From: Candidatus Ornithoclostridium faecigallinarum
GTDB lineage: Bacteria; Bacillota; Clostridia; Christensenellales; UBA3700
DNA: 64,000 nucleotides
Assembly: GCA_018713665.1 (NCBI GenBank)
Contig: DVOI01000001.1
Location: 6,346-70,345 of the forward strand
Reading direction: 5' to 3'
Part shown: piece by piece, positions 18,061 through 61,828 of the stretch
How the letters are laid out: the number at the start of each line of letters is the position of its first letter
Position numbering within the stretch: the stretch's first letter is position 1
The notes under the pieces: generated by a model
The model's database searches: none
Told to the model about the DNA's origin: nothing
The model's input: only the letters and a program-made list of their open reading frames with translations
Translations under genes and position numbers: made by a program

Positions 18061-18927
18061 TCATCGTCCCGCGACGACGACCTCAAGCTCGAGCGTCACG
18101 CCGCAGTCTTCGAACACCTCTCTTTGCGCCCTGTCGGCGAGCGCGAGATAGTCAGCCGCCGTCCCTCCGCCGACATTGACGATAAACCCTGCGTGTTTAC
18201 GCGATATTTCCGCGCCTCCCGCTCGCGCGCCTTTGAGCCCTGCGCGCTCGATGTACCACCCTGCCGACTTTCCGTCAGCACGCTTGAACGTACTGCCGAG
18301 CGACTTCCCGTTGGGCTGGCTCGCCGCCCTGAGCGCGGCATATCTCGCCGCCTCTCGCTCGACCGCCGCCCTGTCCGACCGCACGAGCGAAAACGCCGCC
18401 GCAAGTACAACCGCATCTTTGCCCAGCGCGCTCCTGCGATAGCCGAAGCCGCACTCTTCAGGCCCCAGCCTCACTCTCTTGCCGTCCGCAAGCACGTCCA
18501 CCCAAAGCGCAACGTCCGCAAATTCCGTCCCGAACGCGCCGGCGTTCATCGCCGCCGCCCCTCCGACGCTGCCGGGAATTGCGGCAAGCCTCTCCAAACC
18601 CGATAGCCCCCGCTCCGCCGCCTTTTTGGCGAGCGAAGACAGCCTCTCTCCGGCGAACGCCACCGCGACCTCTCCGCGAAACTCCGCGCCCGTCATCGCT
18701 CTCGTCGTCAAGACCGCGGCGTCGTATTCTCCGTCGGGGAACAAGATGTTCGTCCCTCTGCCGGCGACGTCGAACTCCTCGCCCTCGAGCGCGGCGACGG
18801 CTGCGGCAAACTCCTCTTCCGTCCGCGGCTCGATCAAAAGTCCGATCGTCCCCTCGTTGCCGTAAGAAGAAAACGACGGAGCGCGTCTCCGCGCCCCGAA
18901 TTTGTCCACAAAATATTGCGCGTCCAT
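18061..18927 (-). CDS. murB: UDP-N-acetylenolpyruvoylglucosamine reductase
   Basis: 288 aa; MurB motifs LGSTFKR and SRKHAGFIVN. Confidence 0.9.
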   Translation of the reverse strand: MDAQYFVDKFGARRRAPSFSSYGNEGTIGLLIEPRTEEEFAAAVAALEGEEFDVAGRGTNILFPDGEYDAAVLTTRAMTGAEFRGEVAVAFAGERLSSLAKKAAERGLSGLERLAAIPGSVGGAAAMNAGAFGTEFADVALWVDVLADGKRVRLGPEECGFGYRRSALGKDAVVLAAAFSLVRSDRAAVEREAARYAALRAASQPNGKSLGSTFKRADGKSAGWYIERAGLKGARAGGAEISRKHAGFIVNVGGGTAADYLALADRAQREVFEDCGVTLELEVVVAGR

Positions 18928-32178: not shown

Positions 32179-33904
32179 TGTCGTCCTCCCCGTCGAGATA
32201 TCCCTCTTCGAGCGCCTTTTGCGCGTTGAACAGCCGCGCGTATTCTCCGCCCTTTGCGATGAGCTCGTCATGCGTGCCGCTCTCTTTGACTTCGCCGTCG
32301 CTCATGAAATAAATGTTGTCCGCGGGAACCACGTTGGCGAGCCTGTGCGAGATGACGATGACGTTCTTTGCCTTTGAAAGTTTGCGTATGTTGTCCATGA
32401 TGATGGCTTCGCTGTCGCCGTCGATGTTGGACGTCGCCTCGTCAAACGCATATATCTCCTTGTCGGCAACGAGCGCGACCGCCAACGCAAGCCGCTGCTT
32501 TTGTCCACCCGAAATGTTGCCGCCGTCCTCTGCAATCACCTTGTCGAGTCCGCCGCCCGACTTCACGAACTCGGCGAGCCGCACCTGCTCGAGCGCCGCA
32601 TATATCTCTTCGTCCGACACCTCGGGACGGGCGAGTTTGAAATTGTCGCGCACGCTCTCGTTGAATATGTAGGAATTATACGAGACAATCGCAAGGTGAG
32701 AATACCAGCCGGCACGCGAGATTTCGCTCAGCTTTTTGCCTCCTGCGAGCACCTCTCCTTCGCTCGGTCTGTATGCGCCGCTCAACAGATTGACGACTGT
32801 CGACTTGCCGCAGCCGCTCTCTCCGACGATTGCGGTCATCCCCACGCGCGGAAAGCTCATCGTCACGTCTTTGAGCACGTCGCGTTTGCCGTCGTACGAA
32901 AAGGTGACGCCGCGAAGCTGCGCGGTCGTATCGTCGATGTCTCCGTCGCCCCATTCGGGCTCTTTGGCTTGAAGAATCTCCAGGATTTTGCGCCCTGCGC
33001 TCGCGCCGTTCATCGCGACGTGGAACGCGCTGCCCAGCGACCTTAGCGGCAGAAAGAATTCCACCGCAATCAACACGAGGAAGAGCGCTTTGATCGGATC
33101 GGCGCCGTTCATCACTCCGCTTACCGCAAGCGCTATGCCTGCGCCGGCGCCGCCGTAGGCGACGAGATCCATGATCGTCGTGCTGGCAAGCTGCATGACC
33201 AACACCTTCATCGTAATCTTGCGGAAGTCCTCTGCGGAAGCGTTGATCTGTTCGTGCTTGCGCGCGTCCGCCTTGAAAATTTTGAGCTCTTTCAGCCCCT
33301 GCACGCTGTCCAAAAACACGTCGCCCATCGATGTGTACTTGCCCCAATACTTTGCAAAAATGCGCTTGGCGTACTTGGACACCGCGACTATCGAAATCGG
33401 AATCAGCGGCACGCAGACAATCAGCATCACCGCCGTCCGCCAATCAATCGGAGCGCATATCGCGAACAATATGAACGGCGCAATCATCGAATAGAAAAAT
33501 TGCGGCAGATAGGTCGAATAGTAGAGGTCGAGCTGCTCGATGCCCTCGACGCCGACCTGGGTCATGCCTGCCATCGTCGCGCTGTCGGACGAGCGCACGC
33601 CGAGCCTCAGCATCTTGTCGTACGCGCGGTGGCGCAAATCCTTTTTGACGTGCGCCCCAAGCGCGTTTTTGAACTCATTCGTCGCCTTCGTAATGCAAAA
33701 TCTCAACGCTATGCACAGCGCCGCGATGAGCGCAGGCGCAACATACGACGACGCCGCCGCGCCGTCCGCCGCAAGCCCTATCGCGTAACATATGCACGCG
33801 GTGACTGCGGTGTTGGCAAACAGGCCGAATATCATCGCGATTACCGAATAGGCGATATATTTGCGGTTGCCTCCCAACAGCGAGAGCAGCTCCTTGTCAA
33901 TCAT
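32171..33904 (-). CDS. ABC exporter permease/ATPase fusion, CydD-like half-transporter
   Basis: 577 aa; 6-TM domain plus NBD (GESGCGKST, ISGGQKQR, AFDEATS); 8-nt overlap with ygbA-like gene. Confidence 0.8.
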   Translation of the reverse strand: MIDKELLSLLGGNRKYIAYSVIAMIFGLFANTAVTACICYAIGLAADGAAASSYVAPALIAALCIALRFCITKATNEFKNALGAHVKKDLRHRAYDKMLRLGVRSSDSATMAGMTQVGVEGIEQLDLYYSTYLPQFFYSMIAPFILFAICAPIDWRTAVMLIVCVPLIPISIVAVSKYAKRIFAKYWGKYTSMGDVFLDSVQGLKELKIFKADARKHEQINASAEDFRKITMKVLVMQLASTTIMDLVAYGGAGAGIALAVSGVMNGADPIKALFLVLIAVEFFLPLRSLGSAFHVAMNGASAGRKILEILQAKEPEWGDGDIDDTTAQLRGVTFSYDGKRDVLKDVTMSFPRVGMTAIVGESGCGKSTVVNLLSGAYRPSEGEVLAGGKKLSEISRAGWYSHLAIVSYNSYIFNESVRDNFKLARPEVSDEEIYAALEQVRLAEFVKSGGGLDKVIAEDGGNISGGQKQRLALAVALVADKEIYAFDEATSNIDGDSEAIIMDNIRKLSKAKNVIVISHRLANVVPADNIYFMSDGEVKESGTHDELIAKGGEYARLFNAQKALEEGYLDGEDDND

Positions 33905-34280
33905 TTCGCTTCTCCTCTTTGTCTTTCATCTCTTTCTCTTTTTGTTTTTGTCTTTCTTGTTTTGCGTTTGCGCGCCTTGTCTTGATTGTCTCCGCGAGAT
34001 GCGAAAAGGCGATTACGGGGTGCGTAAAGGTCAGTCGCGGCCCCGAATAGCGCATCACGGCGGCAATCTTTTGCCTCATGTCGGGGCGATAGCAATGTAT
34101 CTTGCAGTTGGAGCAAAACGGCTTGTCGTCCCCGAACGGACACCTCTCGCGGCGCTGTCGTACATACTCGGCAAGCTCGGCACACTCGGGGCACAATTCA
34201 CCCTTTTTGCTCTTGTGCTTGCCGCGGCAATACATCGCGATCATCAACTCCACGATTTCGAGATCTTTTTGCTTTTCCAT
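33897..34280 (-). CDS. YgbA_NO (nitrous oxide-stimulated promoter) family Cys-rich protein
   Basis: 127 aa from ATG 34280 (GAGG 6 nt upstream; alternative ATG 34310); MYCRGKH, LCPECAEL, RCPFGDDKPFCSNCKIHCYRPDMR, MRYSGPR match my recollection of the family; K/E-rich C-terminal tail. Confidence 0.7.
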   Translation of the reverse strand: MEKQKDLEIVELMIAMYCRGKHKSKKGELCPECAELAEYVRQRRERCPFGDDKPFCSNCKIHCYRPDMRQKIAAVMRYSGPRLTFTHPVIAFSHLAETIKTRRANAKQERQKQKEKEMKDKEEKRND

Positions 34281-34301
34281 ACGCGCCTCGCCGAATAGAT
34301 T

Positions 34302-34340
34302 TGTTAGCATTGGCTAACCGTCGGTTAGCATACACTAACC
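34302..34340 (-). promoter_or_regulatory. two tandem 18-bp palindromic operator-like sites in the operon leader
   Basis: Plus strand TGTTAG-cattgg-CTAACC (34302-34319) and GGTTAG-cataca-CTAACC (34323-34340); centres 21 bp apart; they sit between the -10 box and the start codon. Confidence 0.6.
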
Positions 34341-34351
34341 TTGCGAAAAAG

Positions 34352-34380
34352 ATTATAGCCTCTTTTGTCGCAAAATGCAA
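34352..34380 (-). promoter_or_regulatory. consensus SigA promoter of the six-gene operon
   Basis: Minus strand TTGCAT - 17 nt - TATAAT. Confidence 0.75.
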
Positions 34381-37270: not shown

Positions 37271-37975
37271 TTATTCCCCTCGTTTTGCCGCTTCGTATTC
37301 GGCGAGCGAACGCTTTGACCAGTCAATCGGGCGCATGCCGTGCGCGGTCAAAAACTCGTTCGCCTTGGAGAAGTGGCGGCACTCCAAAAAACCTTGATAG
37401 AACGACAGCGGACTCGGGTGCACGCTCTCGAGTACGAGGTGTCGAGACTTGTCTATCATCGCGCCCTTGCGCTTGGCGTAGCCGCCCCAAAGCATGAACA
37501 CGAGCGGTTTTTGCCGCGCCGCGAGCATCGCGACGACCGCGTCGGTGAACCTCTCCCAGCCCTTGCCGGCATGGCTTTGCGGTCTGCCCTCGCGCACCGT
37601 AAGCACGCTGTTGAGCAGCAGCACGCCCTGCTTCGCCCAGCCGCGCAAGTCGCCGCAGCTCGTAGGCTCTATCCCGAGGTCGTATTGCAACGCCTTGTAG
37701 ATGTTGACGAGCGACGGCGGACACGCAATCCCCTCGCCGACCGAAAAGCACAAGCCGTTGGCTTGCCCCGCGCCGTGATAGGGGTCCTGACCCAAGATGA
37801 CGACCTCGGTATCGTCGTACGAAGAATACTCGAACGCCGCCAAGATTTCCTTCATCGGCGGATATACCCTGCCGTTGCGGTACTCTTCGCGCAAAAAGTC
37901 GCGCAGTTTCGCCATATATTCGCTCGACGTCTCCGCGGCGAGCTTTTGATCCCAATCGTTGCCCAAATGCGTCAT
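37271..37975 (-). CDS. ung: uracil-DNA glycosylase, family 1
   Basis: 234 aa from ATG 37975; GQDPYHG and HPSPLS motifs; N-terminus length matches B. subtilis Ung. Confidence 0.92.
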   Translation of the reverse strand: MTHLGNDWDQKLAAETSSEYMAKLRDFLREEYRNGRVYPPMKEILAAFEYSSYDDTEVVILGQDPYHGAGQANGLCFSVGEGIACPPSLVNIYKALQYDLGIEPTSCGDLRGWAKQGVLLLNSVLTVREGRPQSHAGKGWERFTDAVVAMLAARQKPLVFMLWGGYAKRKGAMIDKSRHLVLESVHPSPLSFYQGFLECRHFSKANEFLTAHGMRPIDWSKRSLAEYEAAKRGE

Positions 37976-37981
37976 AGCGAT

Positions 37982-38011
37982 ATTGTACACCCAGGGAGCG
38001 GCGTTTGTCAA
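37982..38011 (-). promoter_or_regulatory. promoter placed for a leaderless ung transcript
   Basis: Minus strand TTGACA - 18 nt - TACAAT, then 6 nt (atcgct), then ATG; no RBS. Confidence 0.6.
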
Positions 38012-38028: not shown

Positions 38029-38058
38029 TTGACATCCGCCGCGCCGAAGTTGTAAACT
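38029..38058 (+). promoter_or_regulatory. promoter placed for a leaderless PHP-phosphatase transcript
   Basis: TTGACA - 18 nt - TAAACT, then 6 nt (gtaggc), then ATG 38065. Confidence 0.55.
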
Positions 38059-38064
38059 GTAGGC

Positions 38065-38880
38065 ATGAAAGAGATCATCGATTGCCATACTCATTGTGAC
38101 TTTTCTCACGACAGCACGGCGCCGGCGCGCGACATGATCGAAGGCGCGCTCGCCAAGGGGCTGTCCTATTTTGCGATCACCGACCACTGCGACAAGGACT
38201 GCGAGGTCTTGCCCGGCTACGAATATATCCGCCAAATCGACCTTCCTCGCCGCTTTGAAGAGATAGAGCGCCTGCGCGACGAATACCGCGGCATGCTCGA
38301 CGTCGCCGTCGGGATAGAATACGGCTGGCTTGCCGCCGCCGACCCTCTTTACATCGAGATAAACAAGCAATACGAGACGGACATCGTCATCAACTCCGTC
38401 CACCTCGTGTCGGGCGAGGACTGCTACTTCGCGCCCTTCTTCGACAAGCGCACCCGGCGCGAAGCGTACACCGAATACCTTCAAGACGTGTCCGCGAGCG
38501 TGGACGCGCCGTACGATTACGACGTCATCGGCCACATAGGCTATGTGATACGCAAGGCTCCGTATGAGGACAAAGTGATGCGCTACGCCGACTACTCCGA
38601 CCTGCTCGACGAGATCTTGCGCAAGCTGATCGCAAAGGGCAAAGCTCTCGAGCTCAACAGCCACGCCGAAGGGACGGGGCTGGACTTTTTGCCCGAACCG
38701 GACACTCTGCGCCGCTACCGTGAACTTGGCGGCGAGCTGGTGACATTCGGCTCGGACGCCCACGCTTCCGAGAATATTGCGCGCAATTTCGACCTTGTCT
38801 GCGAGGCGCTCAAAGCGGCGGGATTCAAGTATCTGTTCAAATACAAGGCGCATTCGCCGATTGCGATAAAGTTGGATTGA
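38065..38880 (+). CDS. histidinol-phosphatase (HisJ/PHP) family protein
   Basis: 271 aa; N-terminal CHTHCDFSHDS PHP motif; HisJ-like length. Confidence 0.75.
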   Translation: MKEIIDCHTHCDFSHDSTAPARDMIEGALAKGLSYFAITDHCDKDCEVLPGYEYIRQIDLPRRFEEIERLRDEYRGMLDVAVGIEYGWLAAADPLYIEINKQYETDIVINSVHLVSGEDCYFAPFFDKRTRREAYTEYLQDVSASVDAPYDYDVIGHIGYVIRKAPYEDKVMRYADYSDLLDEILRKLIAKGKALELNSHAEGTGLDFLPEPDTLRRYRELGGELVTFGSDAHASENIARNFDLVCEALKAAGFKYLFKYKAHSPIAIKLD

Positions 38881-38902: not shown

Positions 38903-40255
38903 ATGACGAAATACGATGCATACACCGAACGCATAAAACGCCTTCTTCCCGACGAGTGGGAGGCGTTTTTGCGCGCCTCGGCATGCGCTCCGTCGCTGAG
39001 AGTAAACACCTTGAAAATGACGTCGGCGCGGCTCGAACCCCTGCTCGGCGTGCCGCTCGACCCCGTCGAATGGTGCGAGGACGGACGCTACTATCCCGAA
39101 GATTTTGCCGCCGGCAAGACGACGCTTCACGAAGCGGGAGCGTACTACATCCAAGAGGCGAGCGCAATGCTTCCGGCAACTCTGCTCGACGCGCGCCCGA
39201 GCGAACTCGTCCTCGACCTGTGCGCCGCTCCGGGGGGTAAGAGCGGTCAGCTCGCCGCCGCGATGAAGGGCGAGGGGCTTCTCGTCTGCAACGAGGTCGT
39301 ACCCTCTCGCGCCGCGATTCTGTCGCGCAACATCGAGAGGCTGGGCGTACGCAACGCCGTCGTACTCAACGAGAGCGTGCCGCGGCTGCAGACGCGCTTT
39401 CCTTCCGCATTCGACAAGGTCTTGGTCGACGCGCCGTGTTCGGGCGAGGGCATGTTCGCCAAAGATCCTAACGCACGCGCCGAATGGACGGCGGACTCTC
39501 CGACGATATGCGCGGCGCGCCAAAAGGCAATCTTGGACAGCGCGGCGGCGATGCTCAAATCGGGCGGCGTGCTCTGTTACAGCACCTGCACCTTCGCCCC
39601 CGAAGAGAACGAATTGCAAGTCGAAGACTTTTTGCGCTCTCATCCCGAGTTCGAACTTGTCAAACTTCGCACCGCGATTCCGCAGCCTCGTCTTGCCGAC
39701 TTTGTGCCGAAAGCCGTCGCGTCGAAGTGCGTGCGCGTCATGCCTCACCTTGCGCGCGGCAACGGGCACTTCTGCGCGCTGATGCGCAAGACTGACGGCG
39801 ATGACATCTCCCTTCCGAAGGGGAAATATTCCGTCCCCCGCGCGATGGCGCGCGTCTGGGACGACTTTGCGAAAAGCGCTCTCAAAACAACGTCGATTGC
39901 CCCCAATGCGGCGTTCGGCGACTCCCTCGTCATGCTTCCGGAATGCTGTCCCGACCTGTCCGGGCTCAAGATCTTGCGCTCGGGCTTGAGGCTGGGCGAC
40001 GTCGTCAAGGGCAGACTCGACCCCTCGCACTCGCTCGCCGCCGCACTCTCGGCGGACGACGCGACAAATGTACTCAATCTGCCGCACGACAGCCGCGCAG
40101 CGCGCGACTATCTGTTCGGCGCGACGCTCGAGAGCGACGCGCGCGGCTGGTGTTTGGTCGCGGCGAGCGGCTGTTCGCTGGGCTGGGGCAAAGGCTCGGA
40201 CGGCACAATCAAAAATCACTATCCCAAAGGCTTGCGCCCGACGCGCAGCCACTGA
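38903..40255 (+). CDS. RsmB/RsmF-type (NOL1/NOP2/Sun) rRNA cytosine-C5 methyltransferase
   Basis: 450 aa; SAM motif DLCAAPGGKS, catalytic DAPCSGEG and YSTCT Cys motifs. Confidence 0.85.
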   Translation: MTKYDAYTERIKRLLPDEWEAFLRASACAPSLRVNTLKMTSARLEPLLGVPLDPVEWCEDGRYYPEDFAAGKTTLHEAGAYYIQEASAMLPATLLDARPSELVLDLCAAPGGKSGQLAAAMKGEGLLVCNEVVPSRAAILSRNIERLGVRNAVVLNESVPRLQTRFPSAFDKVLVDAPCSGEGMFAKDPNARAEWTADSPTICAARQKAILDSAAAMLKSGGVLCYSTCTFAPEENELQVEDFLRSHPEFELVKLRTAIPQPRLADFVPKAVASKCVRVMPHLARGNGHFCALMRKTDGDDISLPKGKYSVPRAMARVWDDFAKSALKTTSIAPNAAFGDSLVMLPECCPDLSGLKILRSGLRLGDVVKGRLDPSHSLAAALSADDATNVLNLPHDSRAARDYLFGATLESDARGWCLVAASGCSLGWGKGSDGTIKNHYPKGLRPTRSH

Positions 40256-44885: not shown

Positions 44886-44913
44886 TTGCCATTTTGCGGC
44901 ATTATGTTATAAT
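44886..44913 (+). promoter_or_regulatory. strong extended -10 promoter of the 486-aa lipoprotein gene
   Basis: TTGCCA - 16 nt - TGtTATAAT; A-rich UP-like tract (TTACAAAAATTTTACAAAATTCAAAAAA) upstream. Confidence 0.75.
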
Positions 44914-44980
44914 AATAATGGTGCGCGTGCAGAGCGCGCATAGACTACATCGCACGAACAACATCGTAAAGGAGGACTTT

Positions 44981-46441
44981 ATGACAAAAACCAAAAAGTT
45001 TGTGACGAGAATTTTGCCCGTGATCGCGGTGCTCGCGATATTGGTGACTTCCATCGTCCTGATGACCGGCTGCAACGACGAACCGGTCACCGTCGTTCTC
45101 GACAACTCCAAGCTCGCTCTGTATGACTACAGGGTCGGCTACATCTCCGGAAACGCCGAGAACAACACCGTCGACCTTACCAAGGCGATTCCCAACGCCA
45201 AAGATTTCGCGATTGAAGACACCACCCTCGCGACGATTAGCGGCACCACTTTGACCACACTCAAAGCGGGCGACTCCAGAATGACCTATACCTTGCTCAA
45301 CGAGGATGGCTCCGCCGTCACCGACGGCTCTGGCGCTCCCGTTGTCAACGAGATCAACATCCACGTCCTCGATGGCTACACCAACGTCGACACTTGGGAT
45401 GAGCTCTACACCGCCGCTATGGGCTCCGGCAAAGTTTGCATTCAATCCGAGCTGACCGTCACCGAAGGCAAGAGCATCAACTTTGTTCCCGCTGACTACA
45501 AAAACTATGTCGCTCATCCCGATGAGCTCACAATCTACGGCAACGTGCTCAAAATCGATTCGAGCGCGGTGACCACCGCCGGCGGAAGCCTCTTCTCGAT
45601 GGAGTATCTGCAGGCCACGATGAACCTCAACGATCTTTACATTGTCGGCGCGACGCCTGTTGAAGATGAGAACGGCGGCATCGACCTCACTCAATTCGAA
45701 ACCTACGGCTCCTTCTTCGTCGCTTACGGCTCGGACGAAGTGTTCCCCGTGTTCAACGTCACTCACTGCTTGACCGAAAACAGCCAAAAGCACGCATATA
45801 TGCGCGCGGCGCAATTCAACATGGACGGCAGCATCATGAGAAACGGCGCCGACGCTCTGCTCGCTGCCGAAACCTCCAATGTCAGAGGCGCAGAACTCAA
45901 TATCAACAACAGCGTGTTTGCCAACTCCGTCGTCTCCGGCATCATCCTTTGCGGCTGGACCAAGATTCGCAGCGCGGCAGACTTCTGCACCCTCAACCTC
46001 ACCGGCTTCGTCGACTTCTACAACTGGAAGAACCGCGAAACCGCTCGCTTGATGCCCGGCACCGAGAGCGCCGCCGGGTTGGTCAACCCGTTCGTTTTGA
46101 GTGCGGTTCAGGACCCGGCCAACGACTCCTACTTCGTCTATGAGGGCTCGACCCGTCCCGGCTTCGACGAACAATACCTCAACCTGGCAATCGTTCGCCT
46201 CTCTTCCGGAGGTCAACCGAACGACTCCGTAATCAACGGCTACGAAGCGCTCGGCTACATGATGGATGACTTCCCGCTTCCCAGCTTTGCCACAAGCCTC
46301 GGCCTCATTAAGAGCTGCCACGTCGTCGCCACTCAGCAGACCAAAGTCGATTGGAGCTCCTCTCTCAGCAACAACCCGACTGCAAGCATGTCCGACAACA
46401 CCAACCTCAACCACGAGCTGGTCTACGGCAGAGAGGCGTAA
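44981..46441 (+). CDS. surface lipoprotein, Ig-like (Big_2-like) N-terminal domain plus beta-helix-like body; function unknown
   Basis: 486 aa from ATG 44981 (AAAGGAGG RBS); lipobox LMTGCN; codon style like eno (C-ending codons, AGA Arg). Confidence 0.6.
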   Translation: MTKTKKFVTRILPVIAVLAILVTSIVLMTGCNDEPVTVVLDNSKLALYDYRVGYISGNAENNTVDLTKAIPNAKDFAIEDTTLATISGTTLTTLKAGDSRMTYTLLNEDGSAVTDGSGAPVVNEINIHVLDGYTNVDTWDELYTAAMGSGKVCIQSELTVTEGKSINFVPADYKNYVAHPDELTIYGNVLKIDSSAVTTAGGSLFSMEYLQATMNLNDLYIVGATPVEDENGGIDLTQFETYGSFFVAYGSDEVFPVFNVTHCLTENSQKHAYMRAAQFNMDGSIMRNGADALLAAETSNVRGAELNINNSVFANSVVSGIILCGWTKIRSAADFCTLNLTGFVDFYNWKNRETARLMPGTESAAGLVNPFVLSAVQDPANDSYFVYEGSTRPGFDEQYLNLAIVRLSSGGQPNDSVINGYEALGYMMDDFPLPSFATSLGLIKSCHVVATQQTKVDWSSSLSNNPTASMSDNTNLNHELVYGREA

Positions 46442-46496: not shown

Positions 46497-46733
46497 CTAT
46501 CGGGCGGCGCCGTCCAAGAATCTGACGCTCTTGGTCAGTACGTCGCTGTACGAAAAACAGCTGACGCCGCCCTCTCCCTCGACGGTGAACACGGCGTCGT
46601 ACATGTCGCGGATCTTACCGCGGAACTTTTCCACCTTGTTGCGTCCGCGATTGACAACGACGATCAACTCTCTGCCGCTCAACATTGCGATCCGCGCGCG
46701 GCAAGCCTCCATACAATGCTTGATCTCTCTCAC
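46497..46733 (-). CDS. veg: Veg family protein
   Basis: REIKHCMEACRARIAMLSGRELIVVVNRGRNKVEKFRGKIRDMYDAVFTVEG...FSYSDVLT parallels recalled B. subtilis Veg (SDIKRSLD...[23 protein letters not shown]...YSYADILT); start uncertain (GTG 46733 or ATG 46712). Confidence 0.65.
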   Translation of the reverse strand: MREIKHCMEACRARIAMLSGRELIVVVNRGRNKVEKFRGKIRDMYDAVFTVEGEGGVSCFSYSDVLTKSVRFLDGAAR

Positions 46734-46821
46734 GCGTCGAGTATTGACGTAATTGCCGGCAAATATGCAAAAGCCGCGCAATTTTTGCACGGCTCTCGCG
46801 TGTACGCGCACTCGCGCGGTC

Positions 46822-48348
46822 CTATCTTTTCTTCTTTCCCTTTCCGCCCCCTCTTTGCTGCCGCTTGCCCTCTTTGGCATCGTCCCGTTTGCGGAAGGGC
46901 GGCTTTTTGTCCGTCTTTTGCGAAAACTCCTTGCCGCTGTCCGCGACCTGCACGCCGATCTTTTTGCCGCCGAGGTCAAAGCCGCCAACCGCGCTCACTT
47001 TGTGCTTGACGTCCTGCGTGACCTGCACGAACGAATATGTGTCGCGCAGCTTGACGTCGGTGATCTTGTGCAGGGGGATGTCCGCGACCGTGGACACCAA
47101 CTTCGCGAGCGTCGCCTTGTCGGGGACGTGTTTTTTGCCGATGTTGAGGAAGAATCTCTCCCCCGCCGCCGACGCCTCGGCACGCGTGCGGACATTGTGT
47201 TTGTCGGACGCGTCCGACGGCAATGTATAGGTCTTGCAATCGCTCAAATCGATTTCGAGCAGTTCGGGCACCGTGCCCGTCTTGCGCGCATAATCTCCGA
47301 TCAGCACCGTCTGTTCGGGCGCGACGAACGTGTACGCCTCGCCCCTTCTCGACGCACGCGCCGTCCTGCCTATCCTGTGCACATACGCGTCCGCCTCTCC
47401 GGGCGGATCGAGGTTGAACACCGCCTGCAGATCGGGTATGTCAATGCCGCGCGCCGCGACGTCGGTGCCGACCAGACACGGCGTTTCGCCGCTGCGGAAT
47501 CGCGCCATCGCGTGCGTCCTGTCCCTTTGATCCATCTCGCCGTGGAGCAGCTCCGCGTTGACGCCCGAGGCGGTCAGCGCGCGGTGCACCCTCTCGGCGC
47601 GGAAGCGCGTGTTGCAAAACACTATATATCTGTCGAATCTCTTTGCTTTGACCAATTTGAGCAGACATCCCACGCGGCGGCTGTCGCCGACGACGACGTA
47701 ATGCTGCCTCACGTCCGGCTTGTCCTCGTGCGCGGCGACTCCGACGGTAACGGGGTCGTTCATCATCTCGCGGCAAAGCGCCGCAATCTCGCCCGGCATC
47801 GTCGCCGAAAAGAGCAAGTTTTGCCTGCCCTTTCCGATTGCGGCGACTATCTTGCGCACGTCCTCGATGAAGCCCATTTTGAGCATTACGTCTCCTTCGT
47901 CAAGCACGAGTGTGCGCAGGTTTTTGATTCTCATCGTCTTGCGGTCGAGATGATCGAGCACTCTGCCGACCGTGCCGACGACGATATGCGGCTTTTTGCG
48001 CAGCGAATAGAGCTGCCGCTCAAAGTTTTCGCCGCCGTAGATCACCGCCGTCCTCACCCCTTCGATGTGCGAAAGCATGGAACGGAACACCGCGCCTATC
48101 TGCATTGCGAGTTCGCGCGTCGGACACAATACGAGCGCCTGTATTCCGCCGTCCGGATCGATACCCTGCAGAATCGGCAGCGCATACGCGAGCGTCTTGC
48201 CCGAGCCTGTCGGCGCGAGCGCAATCACGTCTTTGCCTTCGAATATCTTGGGCATCGCCTCGCGCTGTATCGCGGTCGCCGTCTCGATGTTCGCGTCCGC
48301 GAGCGCGGCGCGCAACCCCTCGTTCAAATCTTCGAAAATTCTATCCAT
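46822..48348 (-). CDS. DEAD-box ATP-dependent RNA helicase with DbpA-like C-terminal RNA-binding domain
   Basis: 508 aa; Q-motif, Walker A APTGSGKT, motif II DEGD (variant), SAT, HRIGRTAR; basic tail. Confidence 0.9.
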   Translation of the reverse strand: MDRIFEDLNEGLRAALADANIETATAIQREAMPKIFEGKDVIALAPTGSGKTLAYALPILQGIDPDGGIQALVLCPTRELAMQIGAVFRSMLSHIEGVRTAVIYGGENFERQLYSLRKKPHIVVGTVGRVLDHLDRKTMRIKNLRTLVLDEGDVMLKMGFIEDVRKIVAAIGKGRQNLLFSATMPGEIAALCREMMNDPVTVGVAAHEDKPDVRQHYVVVGDSRRVGCLLKLVKAKRFDRYIVFCNTRFRAERVHRALTASGVNAELLHGEMDQRDRTHAMARFRSGETPCLVGTDVAARGIDIPDLQAVFNLDPPGEADAYVHRIGRTARASRRGEAYTFVAPEQTVLIGDYARKTGTVPELLEIDLSDCKTYTLPSDASDKHNVRTRAEASAAGERFFLNIGKKHVPDKATLAKLVSTVADIPLHKITDVKLRDTYSFVQVTQDVKHKVSAVGGFDLGGKKIGVQVADSGKEFSQKTDKKPPFRKRDDAKEGKRQQRGGGKGKKKR

Positions 48349-48354
48349 ACGGAT

Positions 48355-48383
48355 ATAATACTACATAGCTTGCATTGCCGCAA
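48355..48383 (-). promoter_or_regulatory. promoter placed for a leaderless helicase transcript
   Basis: Minus strand TTGCGG - 17 nt - TATTAT, then 6 nt (atccgt), then ATG 48348; no RBS. Confidence 0.6.
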
Positions 48384-48398
48384 AGCAAATTGTATAAT
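48370..48398 (+). promoter_or_regulatory. promoter placed for a leaderless SDR transcript
   Basis: TTGCAT - 17 nt - TATAAT, then 6 nt (ataatc), then ATG 48405; no RBS. Confidence 0.65.
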
Positions 48399-48404
48399 AT
48401 AATC

Positions 48405-49130
48405 ATGAAAACGGTCATCATTACCGGCGCGACGCGCGGAATAGGCGCGGCTGCCGCCCTCAAATTCGCAAGCGCGGACTACGCGATCTGCGCGGTCTAT
48501 CGCCAAGACGACTCCTCCGCACGGGTGCTGATTGACAAGCTCGCGAGCAACGGCTGCTTTGCGACCGCAATCAAGGCGGACGTCTCCGACCCCAAGCAGT
48601 GCCGCCGCGTCGTCGAGGAATGCGTGCGCACATTGGGCGCGCCGTGCGTCCTCGTCAACAATGCCGGGCTGTCGGCGATTTCTCCTCTCGTGGACATGGC
48701 GGACGACGACATTTCGTCTTTGATTGACGCCGACCTCAAGGGCGCAATCTATATGATAAAATACGCCCAGCCACACCTTGTCGACAACGGCGGCGCAATT
48801 GTCAACGTCTCTTCGGTATGGGGAGTCGTCGGCGCGTCGTGCGAGAGCGTCTATTCGGCGGCAAAGGGCGGCGTGATCGCCTTCACCAAGGCAATGGCAA
48901 AGGAGCTTGCCCCGAGCGGCGTGCGCGTCAATTGCGTCGCTCCGGGCGTCATAGACACCGCGATGAACGCGCGCTTTGACGAGCGCGAACGCGCCTCTCT
49001 CGTCGAAGACGTCCCTCTCGGAAGGTTCGGCACCGCGGACGAGGTCGCGGACGCAATCTTTTGGCTCGCCGACGGCGCAACTTACGTCACAGGACAATGC
49101 CTGGGCGTGGACGGCGGCTTCGGACAATGA
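48405..49130 (+). CDS. short-chain dehydrogenase/reductase (FabG-like)
   Basis: 241 aa from ATG 48405; cofactor motif TGATRGIG, NNAG, catalytic YSAAK. Confidence 0.85.
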   Translation: MKTVIITGATRGIGAAAALKFASADYAICAVYRQDDSSARVLIDKLASNGCFATAIKADVSDPKQCRRVVEECVRTLGAPCVLVNNAGLSAISPLVDMADDDISSLIDADLKGAIYMIKYAQPHLVDNGGAIVNVSSVWGVVGASCESVYSAAKGGVIAFTKAMAKELAPSGVRVNCVAPGVIDTAMNARFDERERASLVEDVPLGRFGTADEVADAIFWLADGATYVTGQCLGVDGGFGQ

Positions 49131-49139
49131 ACGCCGCAC

Positions 49140-50003
49140 ATGCCTGCCTTTGAACAACGCCCTATGGACCGCAAAGACATCTTCACCGCCGCCGCGCTCT
49201 GCGGCATAGACGACGAGACGGCAGCTCTCGCCGCGGACGCGTTTGAGCGCGAACGCGCGTTTTGCGAAAAATACGCGCCGCGCTGCGCGCGCAAGTTCTG
49301 TCCCCGGCTCTTGCGCAAACCGCCGATCGTGCGCCTTGCGTGCGTGCTCGCGGCGACGACCTATTCACACGAGCGCTACCGCGAACTCGGCATCGGCGAC
49401 GACGTCTTTGCCGCGACTATGTCGGACATAGGGATATGGACGCGCAACTGCCGCGTTCGGGACGGCATCGTAGGGCTTGCCAACTATCCGTGGGTGTCGC
49501 ACCACCTGACGCTGCGCCTCTTCCGCATAGGCAGGCTTCAATTCCAATTCTTCAAACTTTATTGCCCTCTCGGCGCGATTTCGCGGCTTCGCAAGCTGTC
49601 GCCTCCGCACTCTTTGGGCGAAAATATCCTCAACGTACACGTTCCGCAGGGTGAAAAACTCGACCCTGCCGCCTGCGAAGCGTCCTTCGCCGCGGCACGC
49701 GAATTCTTTGCCCGTCACTTCCCCGACTATCGCGCAAAGTGCTTTTTCATAGACTCGTGGCTGCTCGGTCCCGTCAACAAAACGCTGCTGCCTTCCTCGT
49801 CCAACATCAACGTTTTTGCGGACATGTTTTCGCTTATCGCCGTCAAAAAGTGCAAAGGCTGGGACGACGCCGAGCGAATTTTCGACTGCAAGCGCCGCCC
49901 GGTGCGGCAATTGCCGCAAGACACATCTCTTCGCCGCGCGGCGGCAAAACTCCTCGAAGACGGCGGCTGCCTCGAACGCGGGTTCGGCGTCAGACCGCTT
50001 TGA
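49140..50003 (+). CDS. acyltransferase-domain protein (NAT_N / GNAT_C-like), function unknown
   Basis: 287 aa; LFRIGRLQF, HVPQG, SWLLGP and SSNI blocks resemble the clostridial acyltransferase-domain family as I recall it; tentative. Confidence 0.45.
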   Translation: MPAFEQRPMDRKDIFTAAALCGIDDETAALAADAFERERAFCEKYAPRCARKFCPRLLRKPPIVRLACVLAATTYSHERYRELGIGDDVFAATMSDIGIWTRNCRVRDGIVGLANYPWVSHHLTLRLFRIGRLQFQFFKLYCPLGAISRLRKLSPPHSLGENILNVHVPQGEKLDPAACEASFAAAREFFARHFPDYRAKCFFIDSWLLGPVNKTLLPSSSNINVFADMFSLIAVKKCKGWDDAERIFDCKRRPVRQLPQDTSLRRAAAKLLEDGGCLERGFGVRPL

Positions 50004-50019
50004 CATTTACGCGCCGCGA

Positions 50020-50048
50020 TTGACAGCCGCGCGTGCTTATGATACAAT
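50020..50048 (+). promoter_or_regulatory. consensus promoter placed for a leaderless beta-helix-protein transcript
   Basis: TTGACA - 17 nt - TACAAT, then 6 nt (tttgat), then ATG 50055. Confidence 0.65.
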
Positions 50049-50054
50049 TTTGAT

Positions 50055-51563
50055 ATGATACTCTATTCTTTCAAAAATTTGGAACAATTGACAAGGGCGA
50101 CTTCAAACAACGCCTACGTCTCGGCTGTGCCTCGGCTCGACTTCAAGCCGACCGACGGCAACCGCGCCGCAGTCCGCTTCCGCGGTTTGCGCAACGCGAC
50201 AATCGACGGCGCGGGCGCGACGCTGAGTCTCGACGGCAGAGGCTACTATTTCGTCCTCGAGGGGTGCGAGCGCGTGCTGCTCACCAATTTCACCCTTGAG
50301 ACCGCTCATCCCGAATATCTCGAGTTCACGGTGACAAACACCGCTTTCGGCGCAAGCGCCGACGTGCGCTTCGGCGGCGAATATGAGGTAGCGGAAGGCT
50401 CCCCTCTGTCCGTAAAGAGCGGCGAGCAAAATCTGCTTGCGTCGATGACAAATCCGGCGGTATATTGCCGCGACCTGAATGCCGACAAGATACGCCGCGA
50501 AAGTTCCGACCCTCTCGCCAAGCTCAAGGGCGCGTCAAAGATTGCGCCGTCCGCCGGAGGGACGCTCGCCAAATTGTCGTTTTCGGGGCTTACCGCACCC
50601 GTCAAAAAGGATTGCGTCTACATTCGCTTCGACGCGGACAAGACCTGCCCCGGCATCTTGCTGATCAATTGCAAGGACATCACCGTTCGCAACGTCACGA
50701 TACGCTATTGCCACGGCAGCGCAATCAAGGCGGATATGTGCGAAAACGTCACCATACAGGACGTCACTTTGCGCGCGCAGAGCGGACGCAGCGTCGCGAC
50801 TTTGGGTAGCGCGTTCGAGGCGGTCGAGTGCAACGGCTCGCTCTATATCTCCGACTGTCTGCTCGCCGCGACTCTCGCCGACACGGTGTCGGTCAAGGGC
50901 GCGCTCTATGACGTCGCTTCCGCTTCGGGCAATTCTTTGACATTGCGCTCTTCCGACGCGACCGCTCTGTCGCCGTTCGAAAAGGGCGACAAGGCGATAC
51001 TGACCGACAGCGCTCTCGCCCCCGTCGCGACGCTGATGGTGACCGGCTACGATCGCGACAGCCGCACCGTCTCCTTTGAGGAAACCCTGCCGCAAAACGC
51101 GTCGTCGCTGCGCGTCGAAAACGCAAGTCTGCACACCGCGGACGTCTTCTTCCGCCGCGCGACATTGCTCGGCTCGCCCGACAACGGGCTTGCCTTCTCA
51201 ACCTCGGGCTTTGTCCGCGCCGACTATTGCTCGTTCAAGAACATCGTCGGCAAAGCCGTCGTCTGCATGAGCGGACGCAACGGCAACGCCGGGCTTCCCA
51301 AGCGCGTCGAGATTGAGGCGAACAGGTTCGAACAATGCCTCGACACCGCAGTCGAGCTGCTTCCCTCCTGCTCGGGCAAAGCGGCGCTCGGCAGTGTGGA
51401 CATCTATGGCAACACTTGGATGGAGTGCGGCCGCTCGGCAATCGCCGCCGCGCGCTGCGAATCGATCTCCGTCAAACGCAACGTCGGCGACACGGACAAG
51501 TATCAGACCAAGATCTCGCAATGCCCCAAGGTCGACAGCGACGGCGTGGATTATATGTATTGA
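50055..51563 (+). CDS. right-handed parallel beta-helix repeat protein, cytoplasmic, function unknown
   Basis: 502 aa; PbH1-like repeats (NCKDITVRNVTIRYCHGSAIKADMCENVTIQDVTL); no signal peptide. Confidence 0.6.
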   Translation: MILYSFKNLEQLTRATSNNAYVSAVPRLDFKPTDGNRAAVRFRGLRNATIDGAGATLSLDGRGYYFVLEGCERVLLTNFTLETAHPEYLEFTVTNTAFGASADVRFGGEYEVAEGSPLSVKSGEQNLLASMTNPAVYCRDLNADKIRRESSDPLAKLKGASKIAPSAGGTLAKLSFSGLTAPVKKDCVYIRFDADKTCPGILLINCKDITVRNVTIRYCHGSAIKADMCENVTIQDVTLRAQSGRSVATLGSAFEAVECNGSLYISDCLLAATLADTVSVKGALYDVASASGNSLTLRSSDATALSPFEKGDKAILTDSALAPVATLMVTGYDRDSRTVSFEETLPQNASSLRVENASLHTADVFFRRATLLGSPDNGLAFSTSGFVRADYCSFKNIVGKAVVCMSGRNGNAGLPKRVEIEANRFEQCLDTAVELLPSCSGKAALGSVDIYGNTWMECGRSAIAAARCESISVKRNVGDTDKYQTKISQCPKVDSDGVDYMY

Positions 51564-60013: not shown

Positions 60014-60042
60014 TTGTACATCGTGCGAGCGTGTGATATAAT
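60014..60042 (+). promoter_or_regulatory. promoter placed for a leaderless transcript of the SH3b membrane protein
   Basis: TTGTAC - 17 nt - TATAAT, then 7 nt (atgacct), then ATG 60050. Confidence 0.6.
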
Positions 60043-60049
60043 ATGACCT

Positions 60050-61828
60050 ATGACAAGGACAAGGTATTTCGGAATTTTCGCAATCGCAGTCGTCGCGCTC
60101 GTCGCGGTTACGGCGATGCTTTTTTGCGCCGCGCCGACCGCTGTCGCGGAGACGAACGCCGAGATCAAGATTGCGCCCGACGAGACGAGTCTTTACGCCG
60201 CATACGACGGGCATGTCGCCTACACGACCAAGGACGGGGTGCTGCACCTGTCGACCATCGGAAATTCTGTTTCAAAAGGCTTTTCGGGTACAGCTTTGGA
60301 CATTGCGATGACCGAAGATTACGTCTTCTTGCTTACAGATAGCAGCGGCAATAAAAAACTTGCGGCTTATTCCGTCACGGACGGAGTTTTGAGCGAAGAA
60401 CAAGACGTGTTCGAAAAGTTTGCGGTCAGCGACTCTCTCTATGCGCAATTTGCAAACAAAATCGACTCCATCACCGTGACGGGTAACATGTTAACCGTTT
60501 CGGCCGGAGACGCAGGAGACTACACTTGGTTTTGTTCTATTCCTTTCTCCGCTCAAGCGTTGTCTTCCCTGTCCATCAATCTCGGTCTCGGAACAGTCGA
60601 TGATATGGCGACAACCGATGCTGCCGCCGACGATACATATTTGGTCTATGCCGTCTTTGACGGAGATCTCTGTTTTTTACGCCTTCCGGCTACTCCGGTA
60701 GAAGCTCAACCGATAGAAACAAGCGGCAAATGGCTCTCTGTCGCCGCGCTTGACGGTGAAATCTATGCCGCCGCGACGGACGGCGTCTATCGCGTCGTCG
60801 ACGGCACGGCCGTCGTCAAAATTTCAGACGAAGTCGCCGACGGCGACATCCGTCCCTACTCCGAGGGCGGCACGCCCTATCTGCTCGTCCAAAACCGCGC
60901 CGAAAGCTCCATTGTTCAATACTCGATTAACATTGACAGCGACGAGCTCAAATATTACAGCGTTTTCGACAATGTCGTCTACGCCGCTCCGACCGAATAT
61001 CCGATTATGACGGTCGGCACGCTGTCCGCGGCGACGCAGGGTTACTTCTCGCCCAAGAATCTCAAGCCGATTGCCTCCCTCGACGCCGGCGACAACGTTT
61101 TGGTCCTCGCCGAAGTCGCGGCGGAAGACGGCTCTGCGGAAGGATACTACTATGTCCGCACGTCGGCGGACGCGGACGGCGAAATGTGCTATGTCCTCAA
61201 GTCGGCGTTGACTTTGCTCGAGCGCGGCGAGGGCTGGAAACACGGCAGCACGGCAGCGTCCACGCACAGCGGTTTGAAGGTGCTGCAATACCCGTTTGAC
61301 GGCGCGGCGGTGATTGCCACGGTGGGTCCCAAAGATGCCTTGGCGGTGATTGGCGACATAGGCAAATCCGCCGAGGGGTGGAATTGGCTGAGGGTGAGTT
61401 TGATGACCGCCGACGGCACGGTCGCGGACGGTTACGTCACCGAAGAGGACCTCGGTCCGTACGGGCCGTACGAAATGCCGTCGTTCGGCGTCGACGCAAT
61501 CGTCAACGCGGACAAGCTGGGCGAGGCGGTCAATGTCTATTCGCTGCCCGAAGAGCGCGACGAACTCGTCATCGACACTTTGACGGACGGCGAGGTGGTG
61601 CGGCTGGCGGCAGAGGGGCTCAACGTCGACGAAGAGTGGACGCTGATCGGCTACGAAACAGAGGACGGCACCGCAATGAGCGGCTATGTCAAGACGGCCT
61701 ATCTGTCCGAGGGCGGATTGACGACGCTGCAAGTCACGTTGATTGTCGTCGCATGCATAGTTGCCGTGGTCACGGTCGTCGTCGTGATTATCATCGCAAA
61801 AAAGCGCAAACGCGAACGCTACGAATAA
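60050..61828 (+). CDS. secreted, C-terminally membrane-anchored protein with propeller-like region and three SH3b-like repeats
   Basis: 592 aa; signal peptide ...[11 protein letters not shown]; SH3b-like units (GYYYVRT...[15 protein letters not shown]...[15 protein letters not shown]...GYVKTAYL); C-terminal TM helix plus KKRKRERYE. Confidence 0.6.

Follow-up and report, generated by a model that had tools for sequence, protein, structure and literature searches.

Putative back-to-back promoters of leaderless type in the 56-bp spacer of a divergent helicase-SDR gene pair from a Christensenellales genome

How can two divergent genes be transcribed and translated when their start codons lie 56 bp apart and neither leaves space for a ribosome-binding site (RBS)? 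The question arises for a DEAD-box RNA helicase gene and a short-chain dehydrogenase/reductase (SDR) gene of Candidatus Ornithoclostridium faecigallinarum, which lie in a 64,000-nucleotide stretch of contig DVOI01000001.1 that was analysed as a whole and is called the window here. An initial annotation had assigned a promoter to each gene within the spacer and had proposed that both mRNAs are leaderless. Two back-to-back housekeeping-sigma promoters that give leaderless mRNAs for the helicase and the SDR are, with high probability, the best explanation of this locus, judged from the sequence of the window and its relatives.

Promoter geometry and start codons

Each promoter occupies exactly 35 bp, made up of a 6-nucleotide (nt) -35 hexamer, a 17-nt spacer, a 6-nt -10 hexamer and a 6-nt gap before the start codon. 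The helicase promoter covers 48349-48383 and the SDR promoter 48370-48404 (Table 1), with an overlap of 14 bp, and between them they account for all 56 bp; no position of the spacer lies upstream of both -35 boxes. The promoter coordinates and spacings of the initial annotation were reproduced to the base on both strands, including the back-to-back placement of the -35 boxes, 2 bp apart, and the position of each ATG 7 nt past the last base of the -10 hexamer, which corresponds to a gap of exactly 6 nt in both directions. Its statement that no purine-rich RBS fits is also borne out. A 6-nt gap is too short for a Shine-Dalgarno (SD) sequence plus its spacing, and the anti-SD duplex energies of +0.6 and +0.8 kcal/mol for the helicase/SDR pair leave both starts without SD complementarity. 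No Rfam element was found when the whole window was scanned.

The protein domains bear directly on the placement of the two start codons. In the helicase, PF00270 (DEAD, residues 25-188, E = 2.9e-48), PF00271 (Helicase_C, 6.9e-30) and PF03880 (DbpA, 5.1e-08) each score over their own cut-off, and the C-terminal position of the DbpA domain points to a DEAD-box DbpA/DeaD-like architecture. The 24 residues ahead of the DEAD domain leave space for the Q-motif region. In the SDR, position 1 of the adh_short profile (PF00106, E = 3.4e-51) falls at residue 2, and residues 7-14 form the cofactor motif TGATRGIG, which is of the TGxxxGIG type and marks a classical SDR. Judged by these Pfam boundaries, which exclude a downstream start, we conclude that the annotated ATGs of both genes are the correct starts.

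The initial annotation had named, as an outcome that would overturn it, true start codons lying downstream behind internal RBSs. Nothing specific speaks for such mis-assignment beyond the generic risk that attaches to SD-less genes, and we give it almost no credence. It is contradicted by the beginning of adh_short at SDR residue 2 and by the retention of the ATG position in all ten lineages compared below. The next in-frame helicase ATG (48255) would drop the Q-motif region and has no SD before it. At one of the further genes of this type, that at 38065, position 1 of the PHP profile (Pfam) lies at residue 6, and the errors of public gene calls go the other way, towards starts that are too far upstream.

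Conservation across lineages and competing accounts

A protein search for helicase relatives yielded a graded series, and the DNA around twelve of these was retrieved. The helicase matches stand at 98% identity in the complete chromosome (1.8 Mb) of an uncultured Christensenellaceae bacterium (OZ006985.1) and at 83% and 77% in two other Christensenellaceae metagenome-assembled genomes (MAGs); the databases label a relative at 47% identity as Christensenellales and one at 35% as Eubacteriales. Scanning genome contigs with the helicase returned three close relatives only, and scanning metagenome contigs returned two same-species contigs, the rest being distant paralogues. The ten lineages considered here are the window, L002, L162, L003, L161, L164, L165, L166, L167 (with L171) and L168.

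In all ten, across a range of helicase identity from 100 to 43% and of locus GC content from 59 to 44%, the SDR gene is the divergent neighbour of the helicase gene, across a spacer of exactly 56 bp. The spacers align without gaps. On the SDR side, TATAAT is invariant and the TTG of the -35 box is present in every lineage at 17-nt spacing. On the helicase side, a TAnnnT box stands at a gap of 6 in all ten (TATTAT, TATGAT, TATCAT, TATATT or TATACT), and TTG is found at 17-nt spacing in nine, the exception being TTTGAA. The 6-nt gaps vary in sequence and are constant in length on both sides in every lineage, and they are never purine-rich; those on the helicase side read ATCCGT, ATCCTT, AGAATC, AAATGT, ATATCC, AAACGT, AAAGCT, AATCGT, ATACGT and TTAAAT. 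The start codon is ATG in 20 of 20 cases (ten lineages, two genes), each time with a pyrimidine at -1 beside the A at +1, the context at which bacterial RNA polymerase prefers to initiate. Among the distant lineages, column identity is 71-83% in the promoter elements compared with 28-62% outside them.

In the same loci the spacer on the 3' side of the helicase can be as short as 54 bp and as long as 167 bp, indicating that insertions and deletions (indels) are common elsewhere in them. The constancy of the 56 bp follows from the overlap of the two promoters. Because two fixed-length elements of 35 bp overlap by 14 bp, any indel would break a spacer or a gap in at least one promoter, and the length would be frozen across the clade because every base pair belongs to a length-constrained part of at least one of them. 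The correct starts, the lack of anti-SD complementarity and the 6-nt gap fixed in ten lineages support the leaderless geometry, and leaderless expression of both genes, as predicted from these comparisons, is well supported, if short of proven.

Directly 5' of the helicase -10 box, nine of the ten lineages carry T-x-T-G-x-T-G (window 48361-48368, minus strand; same columns in L002-L168), with that TG at -14/-13; the window itself has AG for the proximal TG. The TG abuts the hexamer, a displacement of one base from its canonical place, and a true extended -10 (TGn) is absent from the pair. Beyond the helicase, a veg gene (PF06257) follows in most lineages (L161, L162, L163-L166; window 46497-46760, minus strand) and a SipL-like gene in several; the synteny SDR-helicase-veg is conserved.

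The centre of the spacer raises the question of a shared regulator. In the window the centre reads TTGCGGCAATGCAA, a short inverted repeat, and the whole 56-bp block might be mainly the binding site of a regulator centred on TTGC-N6-GCAA, with the promoter hexamers as a by-product. The comparison makes this very improbable. Across lineages only the outer TTG/CAA triplets are kept and what lies between them varies (TTGTGCAAAAGCAA, TTGAAGAAAAGCAA and others), which is what two -35 hexamers predict. The spacer holds no inverted repeat of at least 6 nt beyond trivial palindromes, and its strongest conservation lies at the two TAnnnT boxes, not at the centre.

Relatives outside these ten lineages differ from them in their leaders. 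In L169 (helicase identity 35%, GC 38%) the divergent SDR-helicase pair is kept with a spacer of 124 bp, and both genes have an RBS, the helicase in TATAAT-ttggttaattt-AGGAG-aaaa-ATG and the SDR in AAGGAG-aaaaat-ATG. The genes and their divergent order are those of the window, whereas the short SD leaders and the longer spacer represent the conventional state of the locus. L172 (40% identity) likewise shows an SD leader, AGGTG-aaaa-ATG. In L170 (44% identity, GC 29%) the distance to the ATG is 7 nt from TGaTATAAT for the helicase and 9 nt from TATAAT for the SDR, and the spacer measures 81 bp once a mis-called start is corrected. Since the outgroups L169 and L172 carry SD leaders, the SD-less state in which promoters abut the start codons is derived and maintained in one clade, and is not general to these genes. 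We conclude from this distribution of sequences that the leaderless geometry is a lineage-specific, selected state. A pair that is SD-led in the outgroup and of leaderless type in the ingroup offers a natural comparison for the switching of initiation mode, and the 56-bp spacer is a compact case in which overlapping length constraints fix a non-coding length over deep divergence.

In the proposed scheme, a SigA-type (sigma-70/SigA) holoenzyme would bind each promoter and begin the transcript with ATP at the first base of the start codon. That base, a purine preceded by a pyrimidine at -1, lies at the usual start position (+1) of RNA polymerase, 7 nt past the -10 box. The two messages would have AUG at their very 5' end, with neither a 5' untranslated region nor an SD sequence, and the ribosome with initiator tRNA would bind the 5'-terminal AUG directly, with no SD pairing. 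The leaderless translation pathway itself is established. The predicted starts are 57 bp apart and the -35 region is common to both promoters, an arrangement in which simultaneous occupancy would be unlikely and competition possible. The transcription start sites, the route of translation and the competition between polymerases are the parts of this scheme that we infer.

Several observations weigh against leaderless promoters at this locus, and some of them favour other promoter-like sites in and around the spacer. Both -35 hexamers of the pair are weak, with three of six matches to TTGACA. A consensus scan of the window alone, requiring four of six matches per hexamer, omits both gap-6 promoters for this reason and lists three others at 9-10 of 12 matches (Table 1). 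Self-complementarity of the helicase -10 region (TATNATA in nine of ten lineages; window 48354-48360) creates a mirror TATAAT on the plus strand; TAnnnT stands at the offset of this alternative SDR site in eight of ten lineages, and 48348 and ~48366 are 18 bp apart, matching the start spacing of mirror-image -10 boxes described below. The predicted 5' folding of the six candidate leaderless mRNAs of the window does not set them apart from other genes (first 35 nt, -3.0 vs -3.5 kcal/mol), and the 5' end of the SDR mRNA folds at -8.9 kcal/mol. The class estimate given below is drawn from one 64-kb window, and in start-site maps of Clostridia leaderless transcripts are rare, at 2-3% and 4%.

If transcription came mainly from the alternative sites, the mRNAs would carry SD-less leaders of ~33-45 nt, which might be translated by, for example, an A/U-rich unstructured leader route. 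We consider this improbable. The -35 boxes of these sites are in coding DNA and have no TTG, and the sites are found in four, five and eight of the ten lineages (the helicase one in five), compared with ten of ten on both strands for the gap-6 promoters. They also leave unexplained the frozen 6-nt distance from -10 box to ATG, the constant pyrimidine at -1 and the indel-free spacer, and the 6-7-nt geometry recurs in the window at four unrelated genes with near-consensus TTGACA. A secondary SDR start near 48366 with a ~39-nt SD-less leader could nevertheless be used, and is compatible with the back-to-back leaderless promoters that we favour.

Leaderless-type gene starts in the window

A gene map of the window was built from frame-specific GC content (GC at third codon positions ~0.75-0.8 in real frames), and 45 gene starts were curated. 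The four further sites listed in the initial annotation (37975, 38065, 50055 and 60050) prove to be real, each with a -10 box, 6-7 nt and ATG. Three of them (37975, 38065, 50055) have a perfect TTGACA -35 box, and two of the four genes, at 37975 and 38065, make up another divergent pair, separated by an 89-bp spacer. The gene at 60050 has no Pfam match, and the N-terminus of its product resembles a membrane anchor. The pair discussed above would thus be part of a wider leaderless class that coexists with a strongly SD-led majority.

This recurrence is not due to chance. The pattern TTGNNN-N16-18-TANNNT-N6-7-start is found at six of the 45 gene starts, compared with a mean of 0.039 in shuffled upstream regions (20,000 shuffles, maximum 2). 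When the pattern followed by ATG is sought on both strands of the whole window, there are five matches at a gap of 6 and one at a gap of 7, all six being real gene starts, and about one match per gap on average at the other gaps from 0 to 40. The geometry thus defines a class rather than a single case.

The six candidates also differ from the other genes in their leaders. Their mean anti-SD energy is -1.6 kcal/mol, compared with a median of -9.4 among the remaining 39 genes; 35 of these 39 are at or below -6 kcal/mol, in keeping with the earlier remark that most other genes carry strong GGAGG sites. The check proposed in the initial annotation, to set the distance from -10 box to start against RBS presence, was run on the 64-kb window and separates the two groups. 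With gaps of 0-44 scanned, the distribution is bimodal: the peak at 6-7 nt (five genes at 6, one at 7) consists of SD-less genes, no gene falls at 8-16, and the SD-bearing genes follow at 17-37.

About six of 22 transcription units with a recognisable promoter, approximately a quarter, are of the leaderless type in the window. The claim of a substantial leaderless class therefore stands at the scale of the window, and the 50055 orthologues keep TTGACA-17-TACAAT-6-ATG in five lineages, including L001, L002, L003 and L162. No support was found for the suggestion that leaderless expression has a functional meaning for an RNA helicase in particular, the divergent partner being an ordinary SDR and the other members of the class unrelated enzymes.

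Other starts in the window show where the boundaries of the class lie. At 44776-44729 (minus strand, TTGACA-17-TATTAT) and 44913-44981 (plus strand, TTGCCA-16-TATAAT), strong promoters are followed, 1-4 nt past the -10 box, by an ATG at which the gene does not start; the true starts lie ~35-65 nt downstream behind GAGGTG or AAGGAGG. These promoters show that an ATG next to a promoter is not diagnostic by itself and that the 6-7-nt spacing is. The MurB gene (18061-18927, minus strand) has TATATT 7 nt before its ATG at 18927, no usable -35 box and only a distant GAGGAAGG ~19 nt away; it may be the seventh of the leaderless genes or else an internal gene that lacks an SD.

Two further SD-less genes are operon-internal and have no -10 box of their own: an RsmF-like gene (38903-40255, plus strand), 22 nt after the PHP stop codon (-2.5 kcal/mol), and a GNAT-like gene (NAT_N/GNAT_C; 49140/49164-50003, plus strand), 9 or 33 nt after the SDR stop codon (+0.4 kcal/mol). 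Translation by re-initiation after termination is one possibility for both. The L002 orthologue of the 49164 gene has its own TTGACA-17-TACAAT-GAAGCT-ATG, aligned with the window ATG at 49164. Elsewhere, the leader that follows the TATAAT promoter of the gene at 33897-34280 contains two similar palindromes, GGTTAGTGTATGCTAACC and GGTTAGCCAATGCTAAC (34281-34352, minus strand), which look like repeated operator sites of a dimeric repressor. That gene was considered as MarR-like and this was rejected, its Pfam match being the YgbA_NO family.

Public gene calls misplace several starts of this kind. Two helicase entries, P0003 (538 aa, 30 aa extra) and P0004 (528 aa, 20 aa extra, 6 of them N-terminal), take as their start an ATG that lies within the promoter spacer; the beta-helix gene of L162 is called as 541 aa instead of 500 aa (41 extra), and the L170 helicase (P0050) is called 12 codons too early (Table 1). 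Since 5' over-extension of leaderless genes is recurrent, a dual-model gene caller is advisable for Christensenellales MAGs.

Table 1. Positions of the divergent pair, its promoter elements, competing promoter-like sites, further leaderless-type starts and over-extended public calls. Positions are those of the window unless a lineage is named; aa, amino acids; CDS, coding sequence; ORF, open reading frame.
Feature	Position	Strand	Details
DEAD-box RNA helicase CDS, 508 aa	46822..48348	-	ATG 48348; DEAD, Helicase_C and DbpA RNA-binding domains (Pfam)
SDR CDS, 241 aa	48405..49130	+	begins MKTVIITGATRGIG...; Pfam adh_short
Helicase 6-nt gap ATCCGT	48349..48354	-	reverse complement of 48349-48354; last base = predicted -1
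Helicase -10 box TATTAT	48355..48360	-	reverse complement of 48355-48360; TAnnnT type
Helicase -35 box TTGCGG	48378..48383	-	reverse complement of 48378-48383; 17 nt from -10
SDR -35 box TTGCAT	48370..48375	+	2 bp from opposite-strand helicase -35
SDR -10 box TATAAT	48393..48398	+	17-nt spacer from -35
SDR 6-nt gap ATAATC	48399..48404	+	between -10 and ATG 48405
Alternative -10 TATAAT, mirror of helicase -10	48354..48359	+	-35-like TCGAAA 48332-48337, 16-nt spacer; SDR leader would be ~39 nt, no SD
Alternative TTGCCG-17-TATAAT	ends 48403	+	start would fall inside SDR gene (consensus scan)
Alternative -10 TACAAT	48389..48394	-	ATGACC 48413-48418, 18-nt spacer; helicase leader would be ~33 nt, no SD
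UDG-superfamily gene (Pfam UDG), promoter and start	37973..38011	-	TTGACA(38011-38006)-18-TACAAT(37987-37982)-ATCGCT-ATG(37975)
PHP-domain gene, promoter and start	38029..38067	+	TTGACA(38029-34)-18-TAAACT(38053-58)-GTAGGC-ATG(38065)
Beta-helix protein gene, promoter and start	50020..50057	+	TTGACA-17-TACAAT-TTTGAT-ATG(50055)
Membrane-anchored protein gene, promoter and start	60014..60052	+	TTGTAC-17-TATAAT-ATGACCT(7 nt)-ATG(60050)
Over-extended public ORFs	L162 2501-4117; L162 9-1634; L163 169-1755; L170 2001-3593

Comparison with known leaderless and bidirectional systems

Single leaderless mRNAs are familiar from E. coli systems, in which the lambda cI mRNA from PRM and the Tn1721 tetR mRNA have a 5'-terminal AUG and no SD, and ribosomes bind the 5' end directly. 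These are isolated cases in an otherwise SD-using genome. The arrangement in the window differs from them in being a recurrent class and in including a divergent pair with leaderless-type starts on both sides.

Closer parallels are found in bacteria in which leaderless genes are common. In the GeneMarkS-2 group C genomes a Pribnow box lies 6-8 nt before the start of leaderless genes, and the group includes 90% of Actinobacteria and only 36 of 1064 Firmicutes genomes (PMC6028130); the leaderless fraction reported for group C is 25-50%. TANNNT ~10-12 bp upstream has also been described as a leaderless signature, and in the survey of Zheng et al. 2011 genes led by TANNNT occurred in 56 of the 209 Firmicutes genomes, where they made up 4.2% of genes on average (PMC3160421). 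The window resembles the group C or TA-led genomes of Actinobacteria and Deinococcus-Thermus in having TAnnnT 6-8 nt before first-in-operon starts, no SD at these starts and SD-led genes coexisting with them, and its fraction of ~6 in 22 units, predicted from sequence, is near the group C range. It differs in its host, which belongs to the Christensenellales (Bacillota, Clostridia), and in its promoters: those of high-GC Actinobacteria have a bare TAnnnT, whereas those of the window add a clear -35 TTG and a near-consensus TATAAT. Our literature search found no paper tying leaderless expression to Christensenellaceae.

A broader picture, which we find plausible if tentative, is that, within the Bacillota, the order Christensenellales may have a leaderless share of about a quarter, similar to that of Actinobacteria, that at its base an SD-led pair was converted to an indel-frozen, double-leaderless module of 56 bp, and that polymerase competition might couple the expression of helicase and SDR. 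If true, frequent leaderless expression would reach a gut-associated order of Clostridia, compared with 2-4% in mapped relatives.

Divergent transcription from one short region is also a property of bidirectional promoters, in which overlapping mirror-image -10 boxes fire both ways from starts 7-25 bp apart, most often 18 (Warman et al., bioRxiv 10.1101/2020.01.31.928960). The helicase TATNATA could support an 18-bp start pair of this type. The main starts predicted here, in contrast, are 57 bp apart, each with its own -10 and -35 box, and the promoters overlap in their -35 and spacer regions, not in their -10 boxes; only the possible start near 48366 would have the spacing of the mirror-image type. 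The mechanism proposed for this locus is a known one that is rare in Firmicutes, and what the locus adds is a clean comparative demonstration of it together with an indel-proof spacer.

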